DNA of 64,000 nucleotides. It comes from an uncultured Acidimicrobiaceae bacterium. GTDB taxonomy: Bacteria; Actinomycetota; Acidimicrobiia; Acidimicrobiales; Bog-793. This document shows, piece by piece, positions 5,380 to 38,420 of the stretch (positions are counted from its first letter, which is position 1; the number at the start of each line of letters is the position of its first letter). The notes below the pieces were generated by a model. It saw only the letters and a list, made by a program, of their open reading frames with translations. It was not told the DNA's origin and made no database searches. The stretch is from assembly GCA_963785415.1 (NCBI GenBank), contig CAWAVB010000001.1:1821125-1885124 (forward strand), read 5' to 3'. The position numbers and the translations under genes are program-made.

Positions 5380-5919
5380 CTAGTCGCGGCCGCCGAGCGG
5401 AGCGAGCCGCTTCCCGATCAACCCGAGCACCCGCCCGATCGCCATGCCGCCGACGACGTCCGAGGCGTGGTGGATACGGACGTAGACCCTGCTGGTGGCG
5501 ACGACCACCGCCGTCGCGAAGTACAAGGGCGCGAGCCGCTCGTCGCCGTCCGAGAGCAACGTCGCCCCGCAGAAGGCCGCGGTGGCATGACCGGAGGGGA
5601 AGCTCGAGGACAGCGGCTGCCGCAATGGAAGGGGGTGATCGTGGTTGTTCACCGGGCGATGGCGGCGCACGAATGACTTCATGACGACGTTGACGAGAAA
5701 CGACTCGACACCGGTCGCGACGATCGCCCGCAACGCCGCCTTCTCGTGGGTGCGACCGCCGCGCCACGCGCGCAGGAGCGCGAAGACGACCCAGATCAGC
5801 CCGAATTCGCCGAGCGCGGAGGCGGTGTAGAAGACCCGGTCCGCAACGGGGTTCCCGCGGATGTGATCGAACAGCGCGTCGACGCGCTCGTCGAAGTCCG
5901 CGACGAGCTGGTTGGCCAT
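5380..5919 (-). CDS. PAP2-family membrane phosphatase
   Basis: All three PAP2 boxes are present: KSFVRRHRP, FPSGHA and SRVYVRIHHASDV. Confidence 0.85.
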   Translation of the reverse strand: MANQLVADFDERVDALFDHIRGNPVADRVFYTASALGEFGLIWVVFALLRAWRGGRTHEKAALRAIVATGVESFLVNVVMKSFVRRHRPVNNHDHPLPLRQPLSSSFPSGHATAAFCGATLLSDGDERLAPLYFATAVVVATSRVYVRIHHASDVVGGMAIGRVLGLIGKRLAPLGGRD

Positions 5920-5943
5920 CGCGGCCCGAGGTTAGTCGGGCCG

Positions 5944-6744
5944 CTACGCGGTCGCCTCGTTCGTCGCGGGTGCCGCACCCGCAAATGCAGGGCAGAGCGG
6001 CCGGAATGCGCACGTCTTGCACAGAGCCGAGGGACTCGGGCGGAAGTCCCCGGAAGTGCACGCCCGGCCGATCGCATCCCAGACCGCGAGGGCCCGCTGG
6101 CGAACAGCGCGCATTCCCTGATCGGTCGGGGACTCGACGAGGACGACCTCGTCGCGCAGGTACATGAGGCGGACCTCTTGCGGGCGGGTGCCGAGCACCT
6201 CCTCGCACAGCATGGCGTAGAAGTACACACCGGCGAGGCTCGTGCGCGACCGCTCGGGCGGCGGCGCCCGTCCGGTCTTGTAGTCGACAACCGCGAGCTG
6301 ACCACCGCCGAGATCGTCGAGGCGGTCGATGATCCCGCGCAGCTCCACGCCTTCGAGGGTCGCGTGCAGGTCGAGCTCGAGTCCGACGTCGTGCACCGTC
6401 GTCGGGTCCTCGAGGGAGAAATACCGCTCGAGGAGCTCCGTCGCGTCCTCGAGGAGGTGACGCGAGGCGGCGTCGTCGAGCGCCAGCCCGGTGAACTCCT
6501 CCGATTCCGAGATCTCGCCCCACGCCGCGGTGAGCGACTCACGCGCCCGCTCCCGGCTCCGTTCGGGGCCCTGGGCGGAGCTGAAGAGAAGCTCGAGTGC
6601 TTTGTGCACGAGCGTGCCGCGCACTTGCTGGACCGAGGACGGCTCGGGGAGCCGGTCGATGTGCGCGTAACGGAAGGCGAGCGGGCACTGCACGAATCGG
6701 GCGAGCTTCGAAGGGGACAGGGTGCTCGGCAGGGGAAGGGGCAT
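5944..6744 (-). CDS. PD-(D/E)XK RecB-family/Cas4-like nuclease with Cys cluster
   Basis: LSPSKLARFVQCPLAFRY at the N-terminus, an IIDRLD...VVDYKTG nuclease core and a C-terminal CKTCAFRPLCP. The start is moved to the internal ATG at 6744, because the longer ORF (to 6882) overlaps the upstream hydrolase gene. Confidence 0.8.
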   Translation of the reverse strand: MPLPLPSTLSPSKLARFVQCPLAFRYAHIDRLPEPSSVQQVRGTLVHKALELLFSSAQGPERSRERARESLTAAWGEISESEEFTGLALDDAASRHLLEDATELLERYFSLEDPTTVHDVGLELDLHATLEGVELRGIIDRLDDLGGGQLAVVDYKTGRAPPPERSRTSLAGVYFYAMLCEEVLGTRPQEVRLMYLRDEVVLVESPTDQGMRAVRQRALAVWDAIGRACTSGDFRPSPSALCKTCAFRPLCPAFAGAAPATNEATA

Positions 6745-28291: not shown

Positions 28292-29056
28292 GTGAGCCAA
28301 CAAGCGGCATCCGAGGATCCCCTGGCGCGAGCCGACGGCCCGATCGCCGCCGGCACGCGGCTGGCGATCATCCGCCACGGCGAGGCATACGCCAACGTCG
28401 ACTCGGTTATCGGCGGGCACAAGGGCTGTCGAGGCCTCACGCCGCGCGGCGTCGCCCAGGTCGAGGTCCTCGCCGAACGGCTCGCTCGCACCGGCGAGCT
28501 CGCCGGGGCCGCGGCGATGTGGACGAGCGTCCTGCCCCGGGCGATCGAGTCGGCGGCCATCCTCGCTCCCACCCTCGGCGTGTCCGGTTTCGAGCGGAGC
28601 TGCTCGTTCTGCGAACGGCACCCGGGGGAGGCCGACGGGATGACCTGGGTGGACTACGAGGCTCGTTACCAGCGGCGCGGGCTGCCGGGCGACGACCCGG
28701 AGTTCCCGACTTCGCCGGGCGGGGAGAGCTGGATCGACTTCCTCGACCGCGCCGCGGGGGCGCTCACCTCGGTCGCCGTCCGCCACCCGGGCGGGCTCGT
28801 CGTTGTCGTCTCCCACGGAGGCGTGATCGACTCGTCAATGATCCGCTTCCTCGGTCTCGCCGAACACGGCAACCTCGTCCGGCTCCACCCGGGCAACACC
28901 TCGATCACCGAATGGCGTCACACCGGCTCACGTTGGCGTCTTGTGCGCTACAACGACGTCGCACACCTGGCGGGCCTCGCCCACATCACCTCGACGGAAC
29001 CGGAGTGGGTCGACGTCGAGCCGCCGGAGTGGGCCGGGACGAATCAGCAGCTGTAG
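28292..29056 (+). CDS. histidine phosphatase (phosphoglycerate-mutase-like) family protein
   Basis: LAIIRHGEA (RHG motif) and VVVSHGGVI. GTG 28292 is preceded by ggaagg. The upstream part of ORF 27272..29056 overlaps proA out of frame. Confidence 0.82.
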   Translation: MSQQAASEDPLARADGPIAAGTRLAIIRHGEAYANVDSVIGGHKGCRGLTPRGVAQVEVLAERLARTGELAGAAAMWTSVLPRAIESAAILAPTLGVSGFERSCSFCERHPGEADGMTWVDYEARYQRRGLPGDDPEFPTSPGGESWIDFLDRAAGALTSVAVRHPGGLVVVVSHGGVIDSSMIRFLGLAEHGNLVRLHPGNTSITEWRHTGSRWRLVRYNDVAHLAGLAHITSTEPEWVDVEPPEWAGTNQQL

Positions 29057-31143
29057 TCGGGGTCGGCGCCGTAGGGGGAGGCGAGCGCGCCCGGCGTCTC
29101 CTGCAAAAGCACCGGCACGCCGCCGGCGAACAGGTCGTTTGGCGGACTCCCGGGGTTCGCGTAGCGGGCCGTCCCGTTGCACCACAGCGGGAGGACCGAC
29201 GGGCTCGACAGTCCCGACTGGGTGTACGGGGGCTTCGTTCGCGGCACCCCGGCGACCCACAGCGGCAGTTGCGGCCCGGTCGGCACGTAGCTGCCGGCGA
29301 TGATCGGGTACTGCAGGCTCGTCGAGTACAGGCCGACCTGGAGGCCCGCCCCACGCAACGCGTCGAGCGCCCCCTGGATCGTGGCGTCGTTCAGCGTGCT
29401 CGACCTCGCCCAGTAGTGCCCCGTCGCGAAGTCGGAGTGGTCGGTCGGTGAGAGCGCGTCGTTCTCGATGTCGAGCCACCACAGCGAGGAGTGGACGCCC
29501 TGGCTCGTCGCATAGGCGAGCCCGGCGATCGCACCGTTGTACCCGTAGTTGTACGCCGAGCAGAGCGGGCCTGCGGCGCCGGTGAGCTTCGCGCAGTTGC
29601 CCTTGGGCCCGGTCGCCGCCATCTCGCGTCCTGCCGGCGTCGTGTCCGGGGCGTTCACGAACAGGTAGAGCGAGTAGGGCGAGCCAGACGATCCCGCGGC
29701 CTGTGTCGCCCAGGTCGCCTCGGCGGCGAGGCAGGGGTTGTCCGCCCCGTCGAGCCAGCCCGTGACCTGGAGGACCGAGACCGGCGAGGACGGTGGCAGG
29801 CCGCTCCTCGCCTCGTTCGACGTCGGCGTCTTGCACTGGAAAGACGAGATGTCGTAGCCGAAATCGTGGTGCGGGAGCGAGACGAGGCCGCGCCGCAGGG
29901 TGTACGAGCGCATCAGCCCGGTGACGGTAACGCCGGGCGGAGGTGGCTTGTGCGCCAGCGACCCGGCGAAATGGGCATCGCCGTAGCCGAAGATCCTCCC
30001 GTTCGCCGCGGTGAGCCAGTAGCCGCCGCCGTCCGCGGTCGAGACGATCGAGACGAACCGGACCGTCAACTTCAGTGCTGCCGGGGACCCGAGGCTCGTC
30101 GCGTCGCCGAATCGGTAGACGGTGCCGTTCGCGGTGGCGATCCAGTAGCCCCGCCCGTCAGCGGTCGGCGCGAAGCCGACCACCGTGTTGGTCGGCGATG
30201 ACCCCGGCGTCTTCGGCACCGATCCGAGGTCCGGCGCGTTCCCGTAGGCGTAGACGGTGCCGTTCGCCGCGACGAGCCAGTAGCCGCCGTCGCTCGGCGA
30301 GGGCGCGAAGGCGACGATCGGGGACGTCAGCTTGGCGTGGACGAGCGAGCCGCAGAATGCCGCGTCTCCGTAGTTGTAGACCGCTCCGTTCGAGGCGACG
30401 AGCCAGTAACCGTCGCCGGTCGGAGTCGCGGCGATCGCGACGATCGGCTTGCGATTGGCGTGATGGACCGGTGAGCCGAGGAAGCGCGCGTCGCCGAACC
30501 GGTAGACGTTCCCGTTCGCGGTGGCGATCCAGTAGCCGCCGGCGTCAGGGGACTCCGCCCCGCCGATGAACTTCACGTGGAGGTGCCGCGGCGCCTCGGA
30601 TCCGAGGAACTTCACACCACCGAAGGGTTCGATGCCGCCGTTGGACTCAGCGAGGTAGTAGGCGGGTTTCTCGACCGTCGGCACAACGAGGGTCGTCGTT
30701 ACCGCCGGGAGCGTCGTCGTCGTGGACGTTGTCGTGGTGGGCATCGTCGTCGTCGTGGGCGTCGTCGTGGTGGTCGGCGTCGTCGTGGTGGTCGGCGTCG
30801 TCGTCGTTGTGGTCGTGGGCGTCGTCGTGGAGGTCGGCGGCGTCGTCGTGGTCGTCGTCGTCGTGGTGGTCGTCGTGGTCGTCGTCGTGGTGGTCGTCGT
30901 GGTGGTCGTCGTGGTGGTCGTCGTCGTGGTCGTCGTCGTGGTCGTCGTGGTCGTCGTCGTCGGTGCCACGGGATAGGCGCATGTCGTCGCGCCTGGCGTC
31001 GGGGGCAGCGTCGTCGGGTCGGAGGTCGTCGCCGACAGGCGGGCGCCACCGGCGCCACCGCCGAGCGCGCCGAGACCGACGACCAACGCGATGGTCGAGA
31101 TGACGGCGAGCAGGGGGCGGCGCGCCATCGCGGAGCGTCGCAT
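29044..31143 (-). CDS. secreted multidomain protein: signal peptide, Thr/Pro linker with a T40 run, six ~42-aa GYW-type repeats, and a GH25/DUF1906 (Rv2525c)-like C-terminal domain
   Basis: The signal is MRRSAMARRPLLAVISTIALVVGLGALGG. There are six repeats of GYW(L/I)xAxNGxVYx(F/Y)GDAxFxGS. The C-terminal domain carries FGYDISSFQC ... LYLFVNA ... WWLDIEND, resembling GH25-like TIM barrels. The start is ATG 31143 (or 31128). Confidence 0.85.
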   Translation of the reverse strand: MRRSAMARRPLLAVISTIALVVGLGALGGGAGGARLSATTSDPTTLPPTPGATTCAYPVAPTTTTTTTTTTTTTTTTTTTTTTTTTTTTTTTTTTTTTTTTPPTSTTTPTTTTTTTPTTTTTPTTTTTPTTTTMPTTTTSTTTTLPAVTTTLVVPTVEKPAYYLAESNGGIEPFGGVKFLGSEAPRHLHVKFIGGAESPDAGGYWIATANGNVYRFGDARFLGSPVHHANRKPIVAIAATPTGDGYWLVASNGAVYNYGDAAFCGSLVHAKLTSPIVAFAPSPSDGGYWLVAANGTVYAYGNAPDLGSVPKTPGSSPTNTVVGFAPTADGRGYWIATANGTVYRFGDATSLGSPAALKLTVRFVSIVSTADGGGYWLTAANGRIFGYGDAHFAGSLAHKPPPPGVTVTGLMRSYTLRRGLVSLPHHDFGYDISSFQCKTPTSNEARSGLPPSSPVSVLQVTGWLDGADNPCLAAEATWATQAAGSSGSPYSLYLFVNAPDTTPAGREMAATGPKGNCAKLTGAAGPLCSAYNYGYNGAIAGLAYATSQGVHSSLWWLDIENDALSPTDHSDFATGHYWARSSTLNDATIQGALDALRGAGLQVGLYSTSLQYPIIAGSYVPTGPQLPLWVAGVPRTKPPYTQSGLSSPSVLPLWCNGTARYANPGSPPNDLFAGGVPVLLQETPGALASPYGADPDYSC
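30691..30960 (-). repeat. coding low-complexity tract: 40 consecutive Thr codons (30841..30960) followed by 50 aa of T/P-rich linker
   Basis: Counted on the DNA: 40 in-frame ACG/ACC codons between the CCG at 30961..30963 and the CCG CCG at 30835..30840. The sequence then reads PPTSTTTPTTTTTTTPTTTTTPTTTTTPTTTTMPTTTTSTTTTLPAVTTT. Confidence 0.95.
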
Positions 31144-32531
31144 CAAGCCGCCAGCAGCTCTGCGACCCGGAAGGCGAGATCGAGCGCTTGGCGCGCGTTG
31201 AGCCGCGGGTCGCACCTCGTCGTGTAGCGCAGTGAGAGATGCTCCTCGAGGATGTCCTCGGCACCGCCGAGGCATTCGGTCACGGCGTCACCGGTGAGCT
31301 CGACGTGGACGCCGCCCGGCCAGGTTCCCTCCTGACGGTGGACCGCGAAGAAGCCCTTGATCTCACCGAGCACGTCGTCGAAACGCCGTGTTTTCCGTCC
31401 GGTCTCGGCAACGAACGTGTTCCCGTGCATCGGATCGCACTCCCAGACGACGGGGTGCCCGGCGTCCGTGACGGCGCGCACGATTCCCGGGAGCAGCGTC
31501 GTCACGTCGCGGACGCCGAGGCGCGTGATGAGCGTGAGACGCCCCGGCACCTTCTCGGGGTTGAGGGCCGCGCAGAGCGCGACCGCTTCATCCGGCGAGG
31601 CGGAAGGGCCGAGCTTCACGCCGATCGGATTGCGCACGCCGCGCAGGAACTCGACATGTGCGCCGTCGAGTTGGCGCGTCCGGTCCCCGATCCAGAGCAT
31701 GTGCGCCGAACCGTCGTAGAAATCGCCGGTCAGCTGGTCGCGGCGGGTGAGCGACTCCTCGTAGTCGAGGAGCAGGGCCTCGTGGCTCGTGAACAGGTCG
31801 ACCTGCTGGGTGGGGGTGTCGGACTCCAGGTTCACACCACACGCCCCCAGGAATCGCAGGGCGCGGTCGATCGCCTGGGCGGTCTCCTCGTAGCGGAGGC
31901 CCTCGCGGCTCGTGGCGACGAACTCCTGGGTCCAGGAGTGCACCTGCCCGAGCGCCGCGAAGCCGCCCTTCGTGAAGGTGCGCACGAGGTTGAGCGTTGC
32001 CGCGGCGTGCCGGTAGGCGTCGACCATCCGGAACGGGTCGGCGCGGCGTGCCTCGAGGCTCGGCGCGTCGTCGTTCACGATGTGGCCACGGAAAGAGGGG
32101 ATCTCCCCGTCGCCGAGCGACTCGGTCGGCGACGAGCGGGGCTTGGCGAACTGTCCCGCGATGCGTCCGATCTTCACGACGGGGACACCGGACCCATACG
32201 TGAGCACGACGGCCATCTGGAGGATGACCTTCAGCTTGTCGCGGATGGCGTTGGCGTTGATCTCACTGAACGACTCCGCGCAGTCGCCCGCCTGGAGGAT
32301 GAAGGCCCGGCGATCGGCCACATGGCCGAGCGACTCGATGAGACGACGCGTCTCGCCGGCGAAGACGAGCGGTGGAAAGGCGGCGAGCGCGTCGAGCGCG
32401 CGCGCAAGTTGGGCGGAATCCGGCCATTCCGGCCCCTGCTCGGCGGGTCGCGACCGCCAGGAATCGACCGTCCAGGCCGTGGCGTCGTCGGTGGGGCGCG
32501 TACCTACCGGCTCGGGGGCGAACGGGCGCAT
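31143..32531 (-). CDS. aroG: 3-deoxy-D-arabino-heptulosonate 7-phosphate synthase, class II
   Basis: Near-colinear resemblance to mycobacterial/plant-type DAHP synthase: FILQAGDCAESF, LQMAVVLTY, IGRIAGQFAKPRS, WIGDRTRQLDGAHVEF, CDPMHGNT and HVELTGD.VTECLGG. Start ATG 32531 was checked in frame. Confidence 0.95.
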   Translation of the reverse strand: MRPFAPEPVGTRPTDDATAWTVDSWRSRPAEQGPEWPDSAQLARALDALAAFPPLVFAGETRRLIESLGHVADRRAFILQAGDCAESFSEINANAIRDKLKVILQMAVVLTYGSGVPVVKIGRIAGQFAKPRSSPTESLGDGEIPSFRGHIVNDDAPSLEARRADPFRMVDAYRHAAATLNLVRTFTKGGFAALGQVHSWTQEFVATSREGLRYEETAQAIDRALRFLGACGVNLESDTPTQQVDLFTSHEALLLDYEESLTRRDQLTGDFYDGSAHMLWIGDRTRQLDGAHVEFLRGVRNPIGVKLGPSASPDEAVALCAALNPEKVPGRLTLITRLGVRDVTTLLPGIVRAVTDAGHPVVWECDPMHGNTFVAETGRKTRRFDDVLGEIKGFFAVHRQEGTWPGGVHVELTGDAVTECLGGAEDILEEHLSLRYTTRCDPRLNARQALDLAFRVAELLAA

Positions 32532-33731: not shown

Positions 33732-34340
33732 TCAAGGGCTCGTTGGAGGTGCAATCGCGCGATAGTCGACGCGATTGACGGAACGGTTCCTGATCACGCC
33801 GCCGTTCGGGAGATAGGCGATCTTCTCGCCGTTCAGCACGAGGTTGACGGCGTCGATCTCGCGGAATTGCGTCAGCGTGTAGACGATCTGCCCGTCGGCC
33901 TGGAACAGCTGGGTCGTGTCGAGGTCGTCGAAAGTCGAGTCGAGGTCGACCGAGGCGACATGGTCGACGACTTTGCCGATGACCGTCACCGTCGCCGCCG
34001 GTGCGACGCTCAGCGCCGTCGTCACGCCGAGCCGGAACTCGGCACTCGTCGGACCCGCGTCGAGGCCGTTCAGCGCCAGCTGGAGTTCGTGATCGAGGGT
34101 GAGCTTCCCCCTCGGCAGGTGGCGGACCGAGGCGACGAGGTAGCCGTTCGTGACGAAAAAGACGTCGATCGCCCGTCCGGGGTGGGGCGTCGTGGGAGGT
34201 GTCGTCGGCGAGGTGAACTGGTTCGCCGGGACGTTGAAAGGTTGCGCCGTCGACTGCAGCGCGATGCCGCAGCCCGACGCGGTGACGGCGAGGACGGCGG
34301 CGCCGAGCGCCACGACCACGAACCGGTGTTGACGCCTCAT
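33732..34340 (-). CDS. lipoprotein with GerMN-like domain (short LpqB-like partner of MtrAB)
   Basis: Signal plus lipobox VLAVTASGC. The mature part (VFFVTNG.L....R...........AL..L..GP) resembles GerMN. Its start overlaps the upstream kinase stop (ATGA). Confidence 0.7.
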   Translation of the reverse strand: MRRQHRFVVVALGAAVLAVTASGCGIALQSTAQPFNVPANQFTSPTTPPTTPHPGRAIDVFFVTNGYLVASVRHLPRGKLTLDHELQLALNGLDAGPTSAEFRLGVTTALSVAPAATVTVIGKVVDHVASVDLDSTFDDLDTTQLFQADGQIVYTLTQFREIDAVNLVLNGEKIAYLPNGGVIRNRSVNRVDYRAIAPPTSP

Positions 34341-35845
34341 CGCGCCGCCCCCCGGTCGGAACCGTCGTCAAGCACCTTCGCCTGTTCCTCTTCGGTCTGG
34401 GAGAGCGGCAGCTCGACGACGAAGCGCGCCCCGCCGGTCGGCGAGTCGGTGACCCACACCCTTCCCCCGTGGAGCCGGACGTGCTCCTGGACGAGCGCGA
34501 GGCCAAGACCGGTGCCGACCCCGGCGCCCCGGCTGCCCGCCGTTCCCGGACCGCGGGCGAAGCGTTCGAAGATGCGATCGCGATCCGCCGACGGTATGCC
34601 GGGCCCGGAATCGTCGACGTAGACCCGAACGGAGTGGTCACTTGTCTCAACGACGATCTCGGTCACCCCTCCGGCGTAACGGTCGGCGTTCTCGATGAGG
34701 TTCCCGAAGACGCGCTCGATCCGGCGCTTGTCGACGGAGAGCTCGCGGTGATCGTCGGCGGGGTTGATCGAAACGGGCAACGGCGCGTGGCCCGCCGGGG
34801 CGACGGCGTGGCGGACGAGGTCGCCGATCTCCACCGGGCTCGTCGCGAAGTCCGCCGAGCGAGCGTCGAATCGCGAGATCTCAAGCAGGTCGCGCACCAT
34901 GCGCTGGAAGCGACGCACCTCGGTGCTCAACAGGTCGAGCGCCCGCTGGGCGCGCTCGGGCAGCTCGTCCCGGCGCGACTCGATCACCGACAGCGATGTC
35001 GCCAGCGTCGTCAAAGGGGAGCGGAGCTCATGAGAGACGTCGGAGGTGAAGCGCGCGTCCCGCTCGATCCGTTGCTGCAGGCGATCGGCCATCCGGTTGA
35101 ACGACGACGTGAGCACGGCGAGGTCGCGCGCGTCGCCCGTCTCGAGCCGAGTGTCGAGCATCCCGCTCGCGATGGACGACGCGGCCGCGGAGACGTCGCG
35201 CAGCGGGCGCAGTGTGCGTCCCGCCGCCCAGCGGCCGAGGGCGGCGCCGAGCAACGTCGTCACGGCCGCCGCGGCGATGAGCGAGGCCAGAAGGACGTGG
35301 AGCGAGGCGTTGGTCTGGCTGAGGCTGAACACCCCGAAGTAGTAGGCGCCATGGGGGATGGCGATCCCGACGGCGAAATGCGGCTCGCCACGGAAAGGGA
35401 ACGTCTGCTCTGCCGACTTCCCGGAAAGCGTGAGCGCGCGCAACGACGCCGGGAGGTTGCTCTGGGGGAACGTCACCGGGGACGAGGGGAACCACGACTG
35501 GAGGGACGTGACGTAGATGAGCGAGTACGACGTCGTCGAGCGGAGATCGTCGGAGAGCCCGAGGACGTCCTCCGTGACCACGGACGGGTCGAGCGCGTAA
35601 ACGCTTTCGTGCAGTGAGGTCGCGTTGGCGATCGCCTGGAGCTCGAAGGAGTGCTCGTCCTGGGAGACGATCGACGAGCTCGTCGTGAAGTAGGTGATCG
35701 ACGTGAGGAGCAGGGAGAGCACGAGCGCGCCCAGTGTGAACACGGCGGTGATGCGGGCGCGCAGCCCGAGATGGATGAGCCGGCCGCGTCCGCGGCGGAT
35801 GCGGCGATGCGGGAGGAGCCGTCGGCGCCGTTCCCCGGCGGGCAT
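34337..35845 (-). CDS. mtrB: membrane sensor histidine kinase (MtrB-like)
   Basis: Two TM helices flank an extracytoplasmic loop, followed by HAMP, the H-box FTSDVSHELRSPLT, and ATPase boxes (NLIENADRYA, DDSGPGI, GTGLGLALV). The start ATG 35845 shares one base with the regulator stop. The gene symbol is assigned by synteny only. Confidence 0.85.
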   Translation of the reverse strand: MPAGERRRRLLPHRRIRRGRGRLIHLGLRARITAVFTLGALVLSLLLTSITYFTTSSSIVSQDEHSFELQAIANATSLHESVYALDPSVVTEDVLGLSDDLRSTTSYSLIYVTSLQSWFPSSPVTFPQSNLPASLRALTLSGKSAEQTFPFRGEPHFAVGIAIPHGAYYFGVFSLSQTNASLHVLLASLIAAAAVTTLLGAALGRWAAGRTLRPLRDVSAAASSIASGMLDTRLETGDARDLAVLTSSFNRMADRLQQRIERDARFTSDVSHELRSPLTTLATSLSVIESRRDELPERAQRALDLLSTEVRRFQRMVRDLLEISRFDARSADFATSPVEIGDLVRHAVAPAGHAPLPVSINPADDHRELSVDKRRIERVFGNLIENADRYAGGVTEIVVETSDHSVRVYVDDSGPGIPSADRDRIFERFARGPGTAGSRGAGVGTGLGLALVQEHVRLHGGRVWVTDSPTGGARFVVELPLSQTEEEQAKVLDDGSDRGAAR

Positions 35846-36543
35846 CACGGGGCGAGCTTGTAGCCGAGACCGCGTACGGTGAGCACGTACCGGGGGTTGG
35901 CGGGGTCGGGTTCGACCTTCGTGCGCAGCCGCCGGACGTGCACGTCGACGAGCCGGCCGTCGCCGAAGTAGTCGTAGCTCCATACCCGCTCGAGGAGCTG
36001 CTCACGGGAGAGCACCTTGCCGTGGTTGGCGGCGAGCTCGCAGAGCAGGAGGAACTCGGTGCGGGTGAGGTGGACCTCTTCGCCGGCGAGCCGGACGACG
36101 CCCGCCTCCGGCATGATTTCGAGGTCGCCGAAGGTGAGCGCGGACGGGCCGCCCTCGGTCGAACGGGCCCGCCGGAGCAGCGCGCGGATGCGTGCCGCGA
36201 GCTCCTTGGGCTCGAACGGCTTCGTCACGTAGTCGTCGGCGCCCGCCTCGAGGCCGGCGACGACGTCGTGGGTGTCGGTGCGCGCCGTCACCATGATGAT
36301 CGGGACCGCGCTCTGACGGCGGACCTCCCGGCAGCACTCGAAGCCGTCCATTCCGGGCAGCATGATGTCGATGATGACGAGGTCGAGGGGCTCGAAGCTG
36401 AGCGATTGGGTGAAGCGCTCGAGCGCCTCCTCGCCGCTGCCGGCCTCGACGACGTCGTAGCCCTCGTCCTCGAGCGCGAGGCCCATCGAGGCCCGGATGC
36501 GTTCGTCGTCCTCGACGATAAGAATCCGACTTGCCATACCCAA
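35845..36543 (-). CDS. mtrA: OmpR-family response regulator (MtrA-like)
   Basis: ILIVEDD, DLVIIDIMLPGMDG and TARTD....G...GADDY..KPF, plus a winged-helix C-terminus (VRRLR.K.E). Confidence 0.9.
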   Translation of the reverse strand: MGMASRILIVEDDERIRASMGLALEDEGYDVVEAGSGEEALERFTQSLSFEPLDLVIIDIMLPGMDGFECCREVRRQSAVPIIMVTARTDTHDVVAGLEAGADDYVTKPFEPKELAARIRALLRRARSTEGGPSALTFGDLEIMPEAGVVRLAGEEVHLTRTEFLLLCELAANHGKVLSREQLLERVWSYDYFGDGRLVDVHVRRLRTKVEPDPANPRYVLTVRGLGYKLAP

Positions 36544-36607
36544 TCTTGTCGCGTCGCGGGCCGCAGTGTTCCCCGGAGTCGTCGCGCGGGTTCGCTACGC
36601 TCGGGTT

Positions 36608-37498
36608 GTGACCTGGGAGTTCGACGCGTTCGTCCAGGCGCTCGGGGCGTCGTCGCCGGCGACCGTCCGGGCGTACCGCTCGGACGTCGACTCGTTCGCC
36701 GGGTGGGCGGCCCGGTCCGGGGTCACGGGGCCCGCCGACGTCGACCGGCTGCTCCTCCGCCGGTACCTCGCGTACCTCGCGACCCGCGGCTACGAGCGCC
36801 GGTCGGTCGCTCGCAAGGCGGCCGCCCTGCGCCGCTACTTCGCCTTCGCCAAGCGGCGGGGGCTCATCGCGGACGACCCGTCGCGCCGCCTGACCGCCTC
36901 CTCGGGCGAGGGGCGCCTGCCCCGCGTGCTCTCGCCCGCCGAGCTCGACGCCCTCCTCGAGGGCTCACCGGACGCGGCACCTCCCGACGATCCCCGCGCC
37001 GAGGCGACCAGGCGGCGCGACGACGCCGTGCTCGAGCTCCTCTACGGCTCCGGCCTGCGGGTGAGCGAGTGCTGCGGGCTCGACGCCGACGGGCTCGACC
37101 TCACCGGCGGGACCGTCACCGTCTGGGGCAAGGGCGGCAAGCAGCGGCGGGTGCCGATGAGCGAGCCGTCCGTCGACGCCTGCCGGAGCTACCTCGGCTC
37201 GGCCCGGGCGGTCCTTTGCGGGCCCGAGTCGCCGCCGCAGGCGGTCTTTTTGAACTCGCGGGGCCGGCGTCTCGGGCCCCGCGACGTGCGCCGCATCATC
37301 GACCGGCGCACGGTCGTGCCGACGCACCCGCACGCCTTGCGCCACACCTACGCCACGCACCTGCTCGACGGGGGCGCGGACCTGCGTGTCGTCCAGGAGC
37401 TCCTCGGGCACTCGAGCCTCAAGACGACGCAGCGCTACACGCACGTCTCCAAAGAGCGCCTCGTTGGCGTCTACAAGAAGGCCCACCCGAGGGCCTGA
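36608..37498 (+). CDS. xerC: site-specific tyrosine recombinase XerC
   Basis: SAM-like N-domain ([10 protein letters not shown]) and catalytic boxes [18 protein letters not shown] and [16 protein letters not shown]. The start is set at in-frame GTG 36608. It sits upstream of rpsB, as in mycobacteria. Confidence 0.88.
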
Positions 37499-37631
37499 CC
37501 GCTGCCGCCATGCGAGCGGCTACCATGCTCCCGAGGCCCGCCCGGGTCTCACGACCAATCGGCCGGACGTGCCCACGGTCGCCTCACGGCGCGACGTCCG
37601 GTTCAGCAGAACCGTTGGGAAGGAGCGACGC

Positions 37632-38420
37632 GTGGCCGTCGTCACGATGAAGCAACTGCTCGAGGCGGGGGTCCACTTCGGACACCAGACCCGCCGCTGG
37701 AACCCGAAGATGAAGCGCTTCCTCTATGGCGAGCGCAGCGGCATCTACATCATCGACCTCCACCAGACCCTCGCCCGGATCGAGATCGCCTACGCGTTCG
37801 TGCGCGATCTCGTGGGGACGGGCGGGACTCTCCTGTTCGTCGGCACGAAGAAGCAGGCCCAGGACCCGGTGGCCGAGTACGCGACGGCCTGCGGCATGCC
37901 GTACGTGAACGAGCGCTGGCTCGGCGGGATGCTGACGAACTTCGAGACTGTCTCGGGGCGTGTCCGCAAGCTCGGCGAGCTCGAGGCGGCGCGTGACTCG
38001 GGCGAGTTCGACGCGCTGCCGAAGAAGGAGGCGCTCATGCTGCGGCGCGAACTCGTGAAGCTCGAGCGCAACCTGGGCGGTATCCGGCGCCTGACGAAGC
38101 TGCCGAACGCCCTGTTCGTCATCGACACGAAAAAGGAGCACATCGCCGTGACCGAAGCGAACAAGCTCGGTATCCCGGTGATCGCCATCGTCGATTCGAA
38201 CTGCGACCCGGACATCATCAACTACGTCATCCCAGGGAACGACGACGCCATCCGCTCCGGCCGCCTGCTGTGCCGCGTGATGTCCGACGCGGTGACCGAG
38301 GGCCGGTTCATCTACTCACGGCGCGCCGCGGCGAACCTCGCGGTCGCCGGCGGTCCGGAGCCGATAGCGCGCCGCACGCGGGACGAGTTCGCGACGGCCG
38401 CGCCGGCGGTGGAGGTCTGA
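37632..38420 (+). CDS. rpsB: 30S ribosomal protein S2
   Basis: [30 protein letters not shown] 37632 is preceded by ggaaggag. Confidence 0.96.

Follow-up and report, generated by a model that had tools for sequence, protein, structure and literature searches.

We analyzed a 64,000-nucleotide stretch of DNA (the window) from an uncultured Acidimicrobiaceae bacterium (GenBank assembly GCA_963785415.1, contig CAWAVB010000001.1, forward-strand positions 1,821,125 to 1,885,124) and focused on a minus-strand gene whose 699-amino-acid (aa) product combines a six-fold repeat, here called the GYW repeat, with a C-terminal domain related in predicted fold to the muramidases of glycoside hydrolase family 25 (GH25). 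The product has four parts, namely, a signal-like N terminus, a Thr/Pro spacer, six GYW units, and a 283-aa C-terminal domain, and it occupies the window as follows (hhalign, Foldseek, AlphaFold2 [AF2], and a hidden Markov model [HMM] of the repeat unit are the sources named).

29044-31143, minus strand: whole coding sequence (699 aa plus stop) of a putative modular exported wall hydrolase
31042-31143, minus strand: signal peptide or N-terminal membrane anchor, aa 1-34, with an Arg-rich n-region (MRRSAMARR), a 20-aa hydrophobic core, and GGAGGA
30673-31041, minus strand: Thr/Pro-rich low-complexity spacer, aa 35-157, 68% Thr by composition count
29893-30672, minus strand: predicted six-bladed beta-propeller of 42-aa GYW units, aa 158-417 (AF2 model, Foldseek, periodicity, unit HMM)
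29047-29892, minus strand: divergent GH25-like barrel, putative muramidase, aa 418-699 (AF2, Foldseek, hhalign)
29851-29853, minus strand: codon of D431 (GYD431IS), placed by hhalign on D10 of Cpl-1
29464-29472, minus strand: codons of D558-I-E560 (WWLD558IE560), a DXE motif where strand 4 ends, aligned with D92/E94 of Cpl-1
29056-29064, minus strand: codons of D694-P-D696 (DPDYSC, at the C terminus), in a stretch aligned with D182 of Cpl-1 (FDKN)

The enclosing open reading frame runs from 29044 to 31275 on the minus strand, and we favor the ATG at 31143 as the start, both because it overlaps the TGA of the upstream class-II 3-deoxy-D-arabino-heptulosonate 7-phosphate (DAHP) synthase gene as TGATG (window positions 31141 to 31145) and because the resulting N terminus (MRRSAMARRPLLAVISTIALVVGLGALGGGAGGA) resembles that of complete orthologues; the MRRSAM start followed by a hydrophobic stretch recurs in orthologue P0002 and in other complete N termini. 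The overlap suggests translational coupling and cotranscription with the DAHP synthase gene. At two orthologous loci (L001 and L002) the called genes lie several hundred bases apart instead, a gap that possibly stems from gene callers starting inside the Thr-rich region. From sequence reading alone we infer that the N terminus exports the protein; it may be cleaved as a signal peptide or retained as an anchor, and passage may be by the Sec or the twin-arginine translocation (Tat) route. ARRPLL follows MRRS at the N terminus, and a clear S/T-R-R-x-F-L-K Tat consensus was not seen by eye.

The spacer (124 residues when counted from aa 34 to aa 157) contains 84 Thr, including a run of 45, and 15 Pro, and the signal-like N terminus and Thr linker described in the initial annotation, which had been made from the sequence without database searches, are thus both present in this reading frame. 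At positions 30712 to 30962 the spacer DNA is an imperfect tandem array of ACG/ACC codons with a period of 3 and a higher-order period of 36. The linkers of orthologues are likewise rich in Thr, Pro, and Ser and differ widely in length (about 20 to 230 aa), for which reason the poly-Thr tract may be prone to slippage. By analogy with the Thr/Pro linkers of actinobacterial proteins, the spacer may be O-glycosylated and span the wall.

The six repeat units begin at aa 161, 203, 245, 287, 332, and 374 and are 42, 42, 42, 45, 42, and approximately 42 aa long. Units 2 to 6 are identical to one another at 11 to 20 of 23 core residues, and the degenerate first unit matches them at 8 to 10 of 23. The 42-aa periodicity is not a product of chance: identity autocorrelation at a lag of 42 was 0.32, compared with a maximum of 0.166 over 1,000 shuffles. 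An HMM of one unit, derived from unrelated members of the family, detects six units in the 699-aa protein, and the canonical unit reads GYWLVAsDGGvFsFGDAxFxGSxGgxxLNxPIVGMAxTPDGx. The AF2 model of the repeat region (mdc343353bcc4) has a predicted local distance difference test (pLDDT) score of 93.9 and a predicted template modelling (pTM) score of 0.90, and it comprises six strand groups with three DSSP strands per blade arranged as a toroid. The ring is closed in the model by pairing of the C-terminal strand (aa ~407 to 417) with the N-terminal strands in one common blade, an arrangement characteristic of beta-propellers. A Foldseek search with this model returned beta-propellers exclusively (1,093 at E < 1e-3, with E values of ~1e-7), among which no particular family was prominent. 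The proposal of six units of ~42 aa, the first of them degenerate, that fold into a six-bladed propeller is thus borne out by the periodicity, the unit HMM, and a confident model.

The repeat corresponds to no named family that we could identify. Neither the 699-aa protein, scanned whole and in halves, nor its canonical relatives have a Pfam match above threshold or an NCBIfam match over the repeats, and literature searches on the repeat sequence and on propeller wall-binding domains found no description of it in openly searchable papers, in agreement with the initial annotation, which had left the repeat unassigned. We did not accept membership in DUF5818 (E = 4e-4) or Reg_prop (E = 0.06), since both matches fall below the gathering scores and cover ~20 residues. 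Over the repeats, the full-length profile also matched 3no0, the C-terminal beta-pinwheel of GyrA (E = 1.5e-5), and the RLD of HERC2 (E = 0.035); Foldseek ranked neither fold high, and we therefore took these similarities to reflect the periodic pattern and set them aside. The GYW blade has a register similar to that of RCC1/BLIP-II blades (a hydrophobic strand, a G-aromatic strand, and a G-x-V-y-x-f-G hairpin), and one relative (P0088) matches WD40_RLD at E = 1.8e-5, albeit with 24.7 bits against a cut-off of 150. However, the GYW propeller has six blades of 42 aa rather than seven of 50 to 60, the RCC1-type models PF00415, PF13540, and PF25390 have no Pfam match in the 699-aa protein, and hhalign comparison with genuine RCC1 domains, those in P0268 and P0272, was not significant (P = 0.015 to 0.06), so that RCC1 membership was rejected. 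In both of these proteins, a GYW propeller and a genuine seven-bladed RCC1 domain stand beside each other as separate modules of one polypeptide.

The C-terminal domain, which contains FGYDISSFQC (from aa 428 onward) and WWLDIEND, is predicted to form a GH25-type barrel. Its AF2 model (m42e10b87847b, from a 60-homologue alignment; pLDDT 95.3, pTM 0.93) has eight strands with helices mainly after strands 2 to 5, and, as in Cpl-1, cellosyl, and the fungal enzymes of PF01183, loops make most of the connections between the last three strands. The leading Foldseek matches in the PDB are GH25 muramidases from Aspergillus fumigatus (2x8r), Acremonium (6zm8), and Trichobolus (6zmv), together with Cpl-1 of phage Cp-1 (2ixv) and cellosyl of Streptomyces (1jfx), at probabilities of 0.99 to 1.0 and E values of 1e-4 to 1e-3; template modelling (TM) scores, normalized to the target, are 0.59 to 0.63 for the single-domain GH25 enzymes and 0.38 for Cpl-1, whose chain has 338 residues. 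The 28 highest-ranking BFVD matches are phage lysozymes except for a few unnamed proteins, one PlyB-like endolysin, and one uncharacterized Ralstonia phage protein. We regard the fold assignments of the barrel and the propeller, both drawn from predicted models, as very likely correct.

The acidic residues of the barrel point in the same direction. A comparison of the family profile with Cpl-1 and six other phage GH25 domains by hhalign spans the whole barrel (P = 2e-6; n = 7) and brings three GH25 features into register: the GxDxSxxQ with which the barrel starts, the DXE motif that closes strand 4, and an Asp late in the sequence, in the region of the C-terminal strand. The DXE motif has been described as the catalytic pair of GH25 enzymes, and their fold has been defined (PMC7954357). 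In the protein studied here this motif is D558-I-E560, and the N-terminal Asp of GxDxS is D431; D431 is invariant in 60 orthologues and conserved at ≥90% in the wider family (53 relatives), D558 and E560 are invariant in every alignment examined, and D694 and D696 (D280 and D282 in domain numbering) are likewise ≥90% conserved. Six Cys residues are conserved across the family (C437, C471, C517, C528, C655, and C699, the last being the final residue of the protein), and judged from this pattern they probably form three disulfides that stabilize the barrel. The initial annotation had drawn attention to several Cys residues in this domain.

The barrel is nevertheless highly divergent from GH25 enzymes in sequence. 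A search of PDB sequences with the wider-family profile gave a single match, to the GH25 enzyme cellosyl (1jfx; E = 0.021), and PF01183 was matched weakly by 4 of 53 family members (best E = 0.002). Phmmer of the single protein against PDB sequences returned nothing, a C-terminal-domain profile (A3) recovered a chance antibody match alone, and NCBIfam contained no match for the domain. At ~283 aa, compared with ~190 to 210 aa for GH25, the barrel carries large insertions that contain Cys, located between strands 3 and 4 and close to the C terminus; it differs from GH25 also in its six conserved Cys and in matching neither PF01183 nor any PDB chain at a significant level in sequence, and structural similarity across normalizations lies in a TM range of 0.45 to 0.63. 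From its fold matches, the hhalign alignment, the conserved acids, and the weak PF01183 and 1jfx signals, we interpret the domain as a GH25-type barrel that has diverged very far, and, because it failed the sequence-threshold test, we call it GH25-like rather than a member of GH25. Elsewhere this domain stands alone or is fused to LysM (P0216) or fn3.

The GYW module itself is widespread. A phmmer search with the module against 1.84 billion cluster representatives (clusters at 50% identity) recovered 17,390 matches at E ≤ 1e-3 and 6,240 at E ≤ 1e-30. We tallied fusion partners in the 120 best cellular matches to a canonical six-unit query, 10 of which were rechecked by hmmscan; the identifiable partners were CAP (15), NlpC/P60 (12), CHAP (9), YkuD LD-transpeptidase (5), VanY (5), and M23 (3) domains, with AMIN-like (2), Amidase_2 (1), and 3D (1) domains more rarely represented. 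Most of these proteins are ~400 to 440 aa long and consist of one propeller and one small domain, which may precede or follow the propeller. Further partners include Amidase_3, a domain of beta-lactamase fold (P0104), PG_binding_1 together with YkuD, and SpoIID. The module is thus an accessory common to different peptidoglycan enzymes, phage endolysins among them, in the manner of modular wall hydrolases. The survey answers the suggestion of the initial annotation that the occurrence and fusions of the repeat be charted, and it modifies its description of the propeller as a novel targeting module: a wall-targeting role is independently supported, because the propeller is shared by many peptidoglycan enzymes and phage endolysins, but the module is very abundant and not peculiar to the 699-aa protein.

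Several observations concern GYW proteins more generally. CAP/YkwD is the most frequent identifiable partner of six-unit propellers (15 of the 120; e.g., P0386, P0402, and P0435), and their link to a module that putatively binds the wall may hint at what CAP proteins do in bacteria. GYW propellers also lie at the ends of giant surface proteins (P0244, 2,409 aa, and P0287, 2,725 aa) annotated as RHS-repeat associated or as "titin"/Ig-domain proteins. Misannotation of the family is systematic: in Joint Genome Institute (JGI) records several GYW proteins bear the name "ribosomal protein L24E," and "Ni/Co efflux regulator RcnB" and "ligand-binding sensor domain" are the names given to others (the proteins concerned are P0401, P0403, P0415, P0417, P0423, P0448, P0463, and P0480). 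Matches of the repeat to Ribosomal_L24e (PF01246) are spurious, at ~23 bits against a cut-off of 27.

GYW units are also encoded by viruses. We found them in 63 IMG/VR viral contigs (among them loci L094 to L152; examples are L098:5578-6363, L119:5563-6237, and L146:5245-6396), mostly in proteins of 220 to 330 aa in which the units are C terminal; a tblastn search of the canonical repeat against INPHARED phage records and PLSDB plasmids gave no match. An N-terminal Amidase_2 domain is present in 39 of the 63 viral proteins, VanY in one, and a canonical GH25 domain (PF01183, E = 1.7e-18) in one, the last of these being the protein at L146 (5245 to 6396), in which GYW units follow the GH25 domain. 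At L098 the GYW gene (5578 to 6363) comes directly after tape-measure, Dit, and minor-tail genes, in the position that a lysis cassette usually occupies. In endolysins from phages of Gram-positive bacteria, the C-terminal noncatalytic domain is a wall-binding domain, and by this analogy the position of the GYW units provides the strongest indirect evidence that they may bind the wall. The unit HMM finds two units in 31 of the short viral proteins and three in 25, compared with six in cellular proteins. Since both numbers divide six, these forms could assemble as trimers and dimers, respectively, suggesting that phage GYW domains may form oligomeric six-bladed rings.

The family of the C-terminal domain comprises 470 confirmed stretches in GTDB species genomes, and the species-locus counts that follow refer to 80 of these. 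Of the 80, 79 come from metagenome-assembled genomes (MAGs) of Acidimicrobiales, Acidimicrobiaceae, or otherwise-labelled actinobacteria, uncultured and from peat or soil, and one comes from a Limnocylindrales MAG; the closest among the matches listed has 93% identity (MAG "SPRUCE 161"). Some genomes carry a second copy elsewhere, and no paralogue of the propeller or the barrel domain occurs elsewhere in the window. The propeller precedes the barrel in 78 of the 80 loci, and a DAHP synthase gene lies directly upstream in 52, as it does in the window (class II; PF01474, E = 1e-198). With X denoting the hydrolase gene, the neighborhood rsfS-nadD-DAHP synthase-X-His phosphatase-proA-proB-obg-rpmA-rplU-RNase E is conserved, and the order from rsfS to obg is intact in L001 and interrupted in L002. 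This conserved neighborhood and distribution identify the gene as an old, vertically inherited core gene, and a vertically inherited gene at a fixed position argues for a role in wall growth, turnover, or cell separation rather than in attack on other cells.

These data lead us to the view that the protein is probably a wall-anchored GH25-like autolysin, exported and modular in build, and core and syntenic in Acidimicrobiales. In the mechanism that we propose, the N-terminal signal or anchor would export the protein from the cytoplasm, and the long Thr/Pro spacer, probably glycosylated, would give it reach into the wall. The GYW propeller would hold the enzyme on peptidoglycan or on a wall-linked polymer, as the pattern of domain co-occurrence implies, and the barrel would cleave the N-acetylmuramic acid-N-acetylglucosamine (MurNAc-GlcNAc) glycan strand by means of D558-x-E560, aided by D431 and D694/D696. 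That the repeat occurs in thousands of wall-remodelling enzymes and in phage lysis enzymes makes anchorage of enzymes to the wall the most likely role of the propeller; we put the chance that it is a wall-binding domain at about even. Arabinogalactan, which the initial annotation had named as a substrate to be tried, finds no support, because the organism belongs to Acidimicrobiales and is not a mycolate actinobacterium.

Some of our results weigh against this reading. The 699-aa protein has no Pfam match for its C-terminal domain even at E = 10 and so does not reach the GH25 gathering score, and superpositions on GH25 structures are loose (root mean square deviation of ~6 Å, TM 0.45 to 0.49 normalized to the query), which we attribute to the barrel being ~90 residues larger than GH25 enzymes. 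Signal-peptide cleavage, disulfides, and glycosylation are all parts of the picture that we infer, and the propeller also has partners that are not peptidoglycan enzymes (GH43, sulfatase, subtilase [S8], Ig-like, NHL, RHS, and CAP domains), in view of which it could be a general surface-display or protein-binding module. The GH43, sulfatase, S8 protease, Ig-like, and NHL partners would suit an enzyme that cuts a glycan other than peptidoglycan, such as a secondary wall polymer, an exopolysaccharide, or an environmental polysaccharide, with the propeller serving as a generic lectin or surface-display module; GH20, GH3, and GH30 barrels do appear among the lower Foldseek PDB matches, and the large insertions relative to GH25 could reshape the groove. 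We nevertheless consider such a substrate unlikely, since the top fold matches are muramidases and lysozymes only, the C-terminal domain is fused to LysM in P0216, the commonest identifiable partners of the propeller are peptidoglycan enzymes and phage endolysin amidases, and the gene is a syntenic core gene that does not lie in a polysaccharide-utilization cluster. Less probable still is that the barrel is a glycoside-hydrolase-like protein of the Rv2525c/DUF1906 type, possibly nonlytic, instead of a GH25 muramidase. Like the 699-aa protein, Rv2525c comes from an actinobacterium, is exported, and contains a GH25-related barrel; the N terminus studied here contains RR, as Tat substrates do, and PF08924 is weakly matched by 2 of 53 family members (best E = 0.046). 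Matches to PF01183 are commoner and stronger, however, the 699-aa protein itself has no PF08924 match, the sole PDB profile match is the GH25 enzyme cellosyl, the Foldseek PDB top 50 contains five GH25 enzymes and no Rv2525c structure, and the GH25 acidic residues are all aligned. The initial annotation had likened the domain to an Rv2525c/GH25-like barrel; of this, the GH25-type barrel and the acids positioned on GH25 catalytic residues stand, but the domain lies nearer to GH25 than to Rv2525c/DUF1906. Neither of the two outcomes that the initial annotation had listed as contradicting its interpretation was observed.

A further alternative concerns the propeller alone, which might be a protein-interaction or regulatory module that binds penicillin-binding or beta-lactamase-fold proteins as BLIP-II does or docks to the divisome. 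Its short 42-aa blades with three DSSP strands recall those of BLIP-II, which are three-stranded and ~40 aa long, a domain of beta-lactamase fold is the fusion partner in P0104, and the HERC2 RLD and WD40_RLD signals described above are weakly RCC1-like. We think docking improbable, to about the same degree as the Rv2525c alternative, given that the WD40_RLD match lies far under the gathering score, that profile-profile comparison with bona fide RCC1 domains was not significant, and that BLIP-II is outside the Foldseek top 50; moreover, the C-terminal repeat domain of endolysins is classically wall binding, and phages have no obvious need to dock to host proteins.

Enzymes that combine a catalytic domain with a repeat for wall targeting are well known, and it is the identity of both parts that is new here. 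As with the choline-binding repeats of Cpl-1 and LytA, LysM, SH3b, and PG_binding_1 in the modular autolysins and phage endolysins of Gram-positive bacteria, one repeat module is combined with many peptidoglycan-cleaving or cross-link-editing domains, on either side of them, and is found in host enzymes and phage lysins alike. Unlike those modules, the GYW module is predicted to be a closed six-bladed propeller of 42-aa units for which neither Pfam nor NCBIfam has a model, its binding to the wall is putative, and its phage versions carry two or three units only. More tentatively, and with slightly less than even expectation, we propose that GYW is an undescribed, lineage-wide wall-binding propeller and the principal wall-targeting module of Acidimicrobiia autolysins, peptidoglycan-editing enzymes, and phage endolysins, that the phage forms oligomerize, and that the barrel would be the first of a new glycoside hydrolase family with a distant relationship to GH25.

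Soils, peat, fresh water, and the sea all harbor abundant Acidimicrobiia, almost none of which have been cultured. The present analysis defines two uncurated domain families, of which the GYW propeller spans at least 17,000 protein clusters labelled "hypothetical" or "ribosomal protein L24E." Naming it as a peptidoglycan-enzyme accessory module would supply an annotation for many proteins in one step and would point to the repertoire of autolysins, LD-transpeptidases, and carboxypeptidases in Acidimicrobiia. If it does bind the wall, the propeller would represent a new structural type among endolysin wall-binding domains and could serve to label or capture uncultured Acidimicrobiia. The divergent barrel, for its part, would widen the sequence space of GH25-type muramidases.

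The surroundings of the gene hold some further features. A convergent histidine-phosphatase-family gene on the plus strand, with its open reading frame ending at 29056, overlaps the 3' end of the hydrolase gene by 13 bases (29044 to 29056). Just past rsfS, on the minus strand, lie genes for a Germane-domain protein (33732 to 34340) and a HAMP/HisKA/HATPase sensor kinase (34337 to 35983), and at L001 a response regulator gene precedes this pair; the locus at 33732 to 35983 looks like an envelope two-component locus of the MtrA-MtrB-LpqB type near the hydrolase gene. On the plus strand, positions 35938 to 37650 form a 570-aa open reading frame, a candidate gene at most in DNA of 70% G+C, that has no Pfam match at E = 1e-3.

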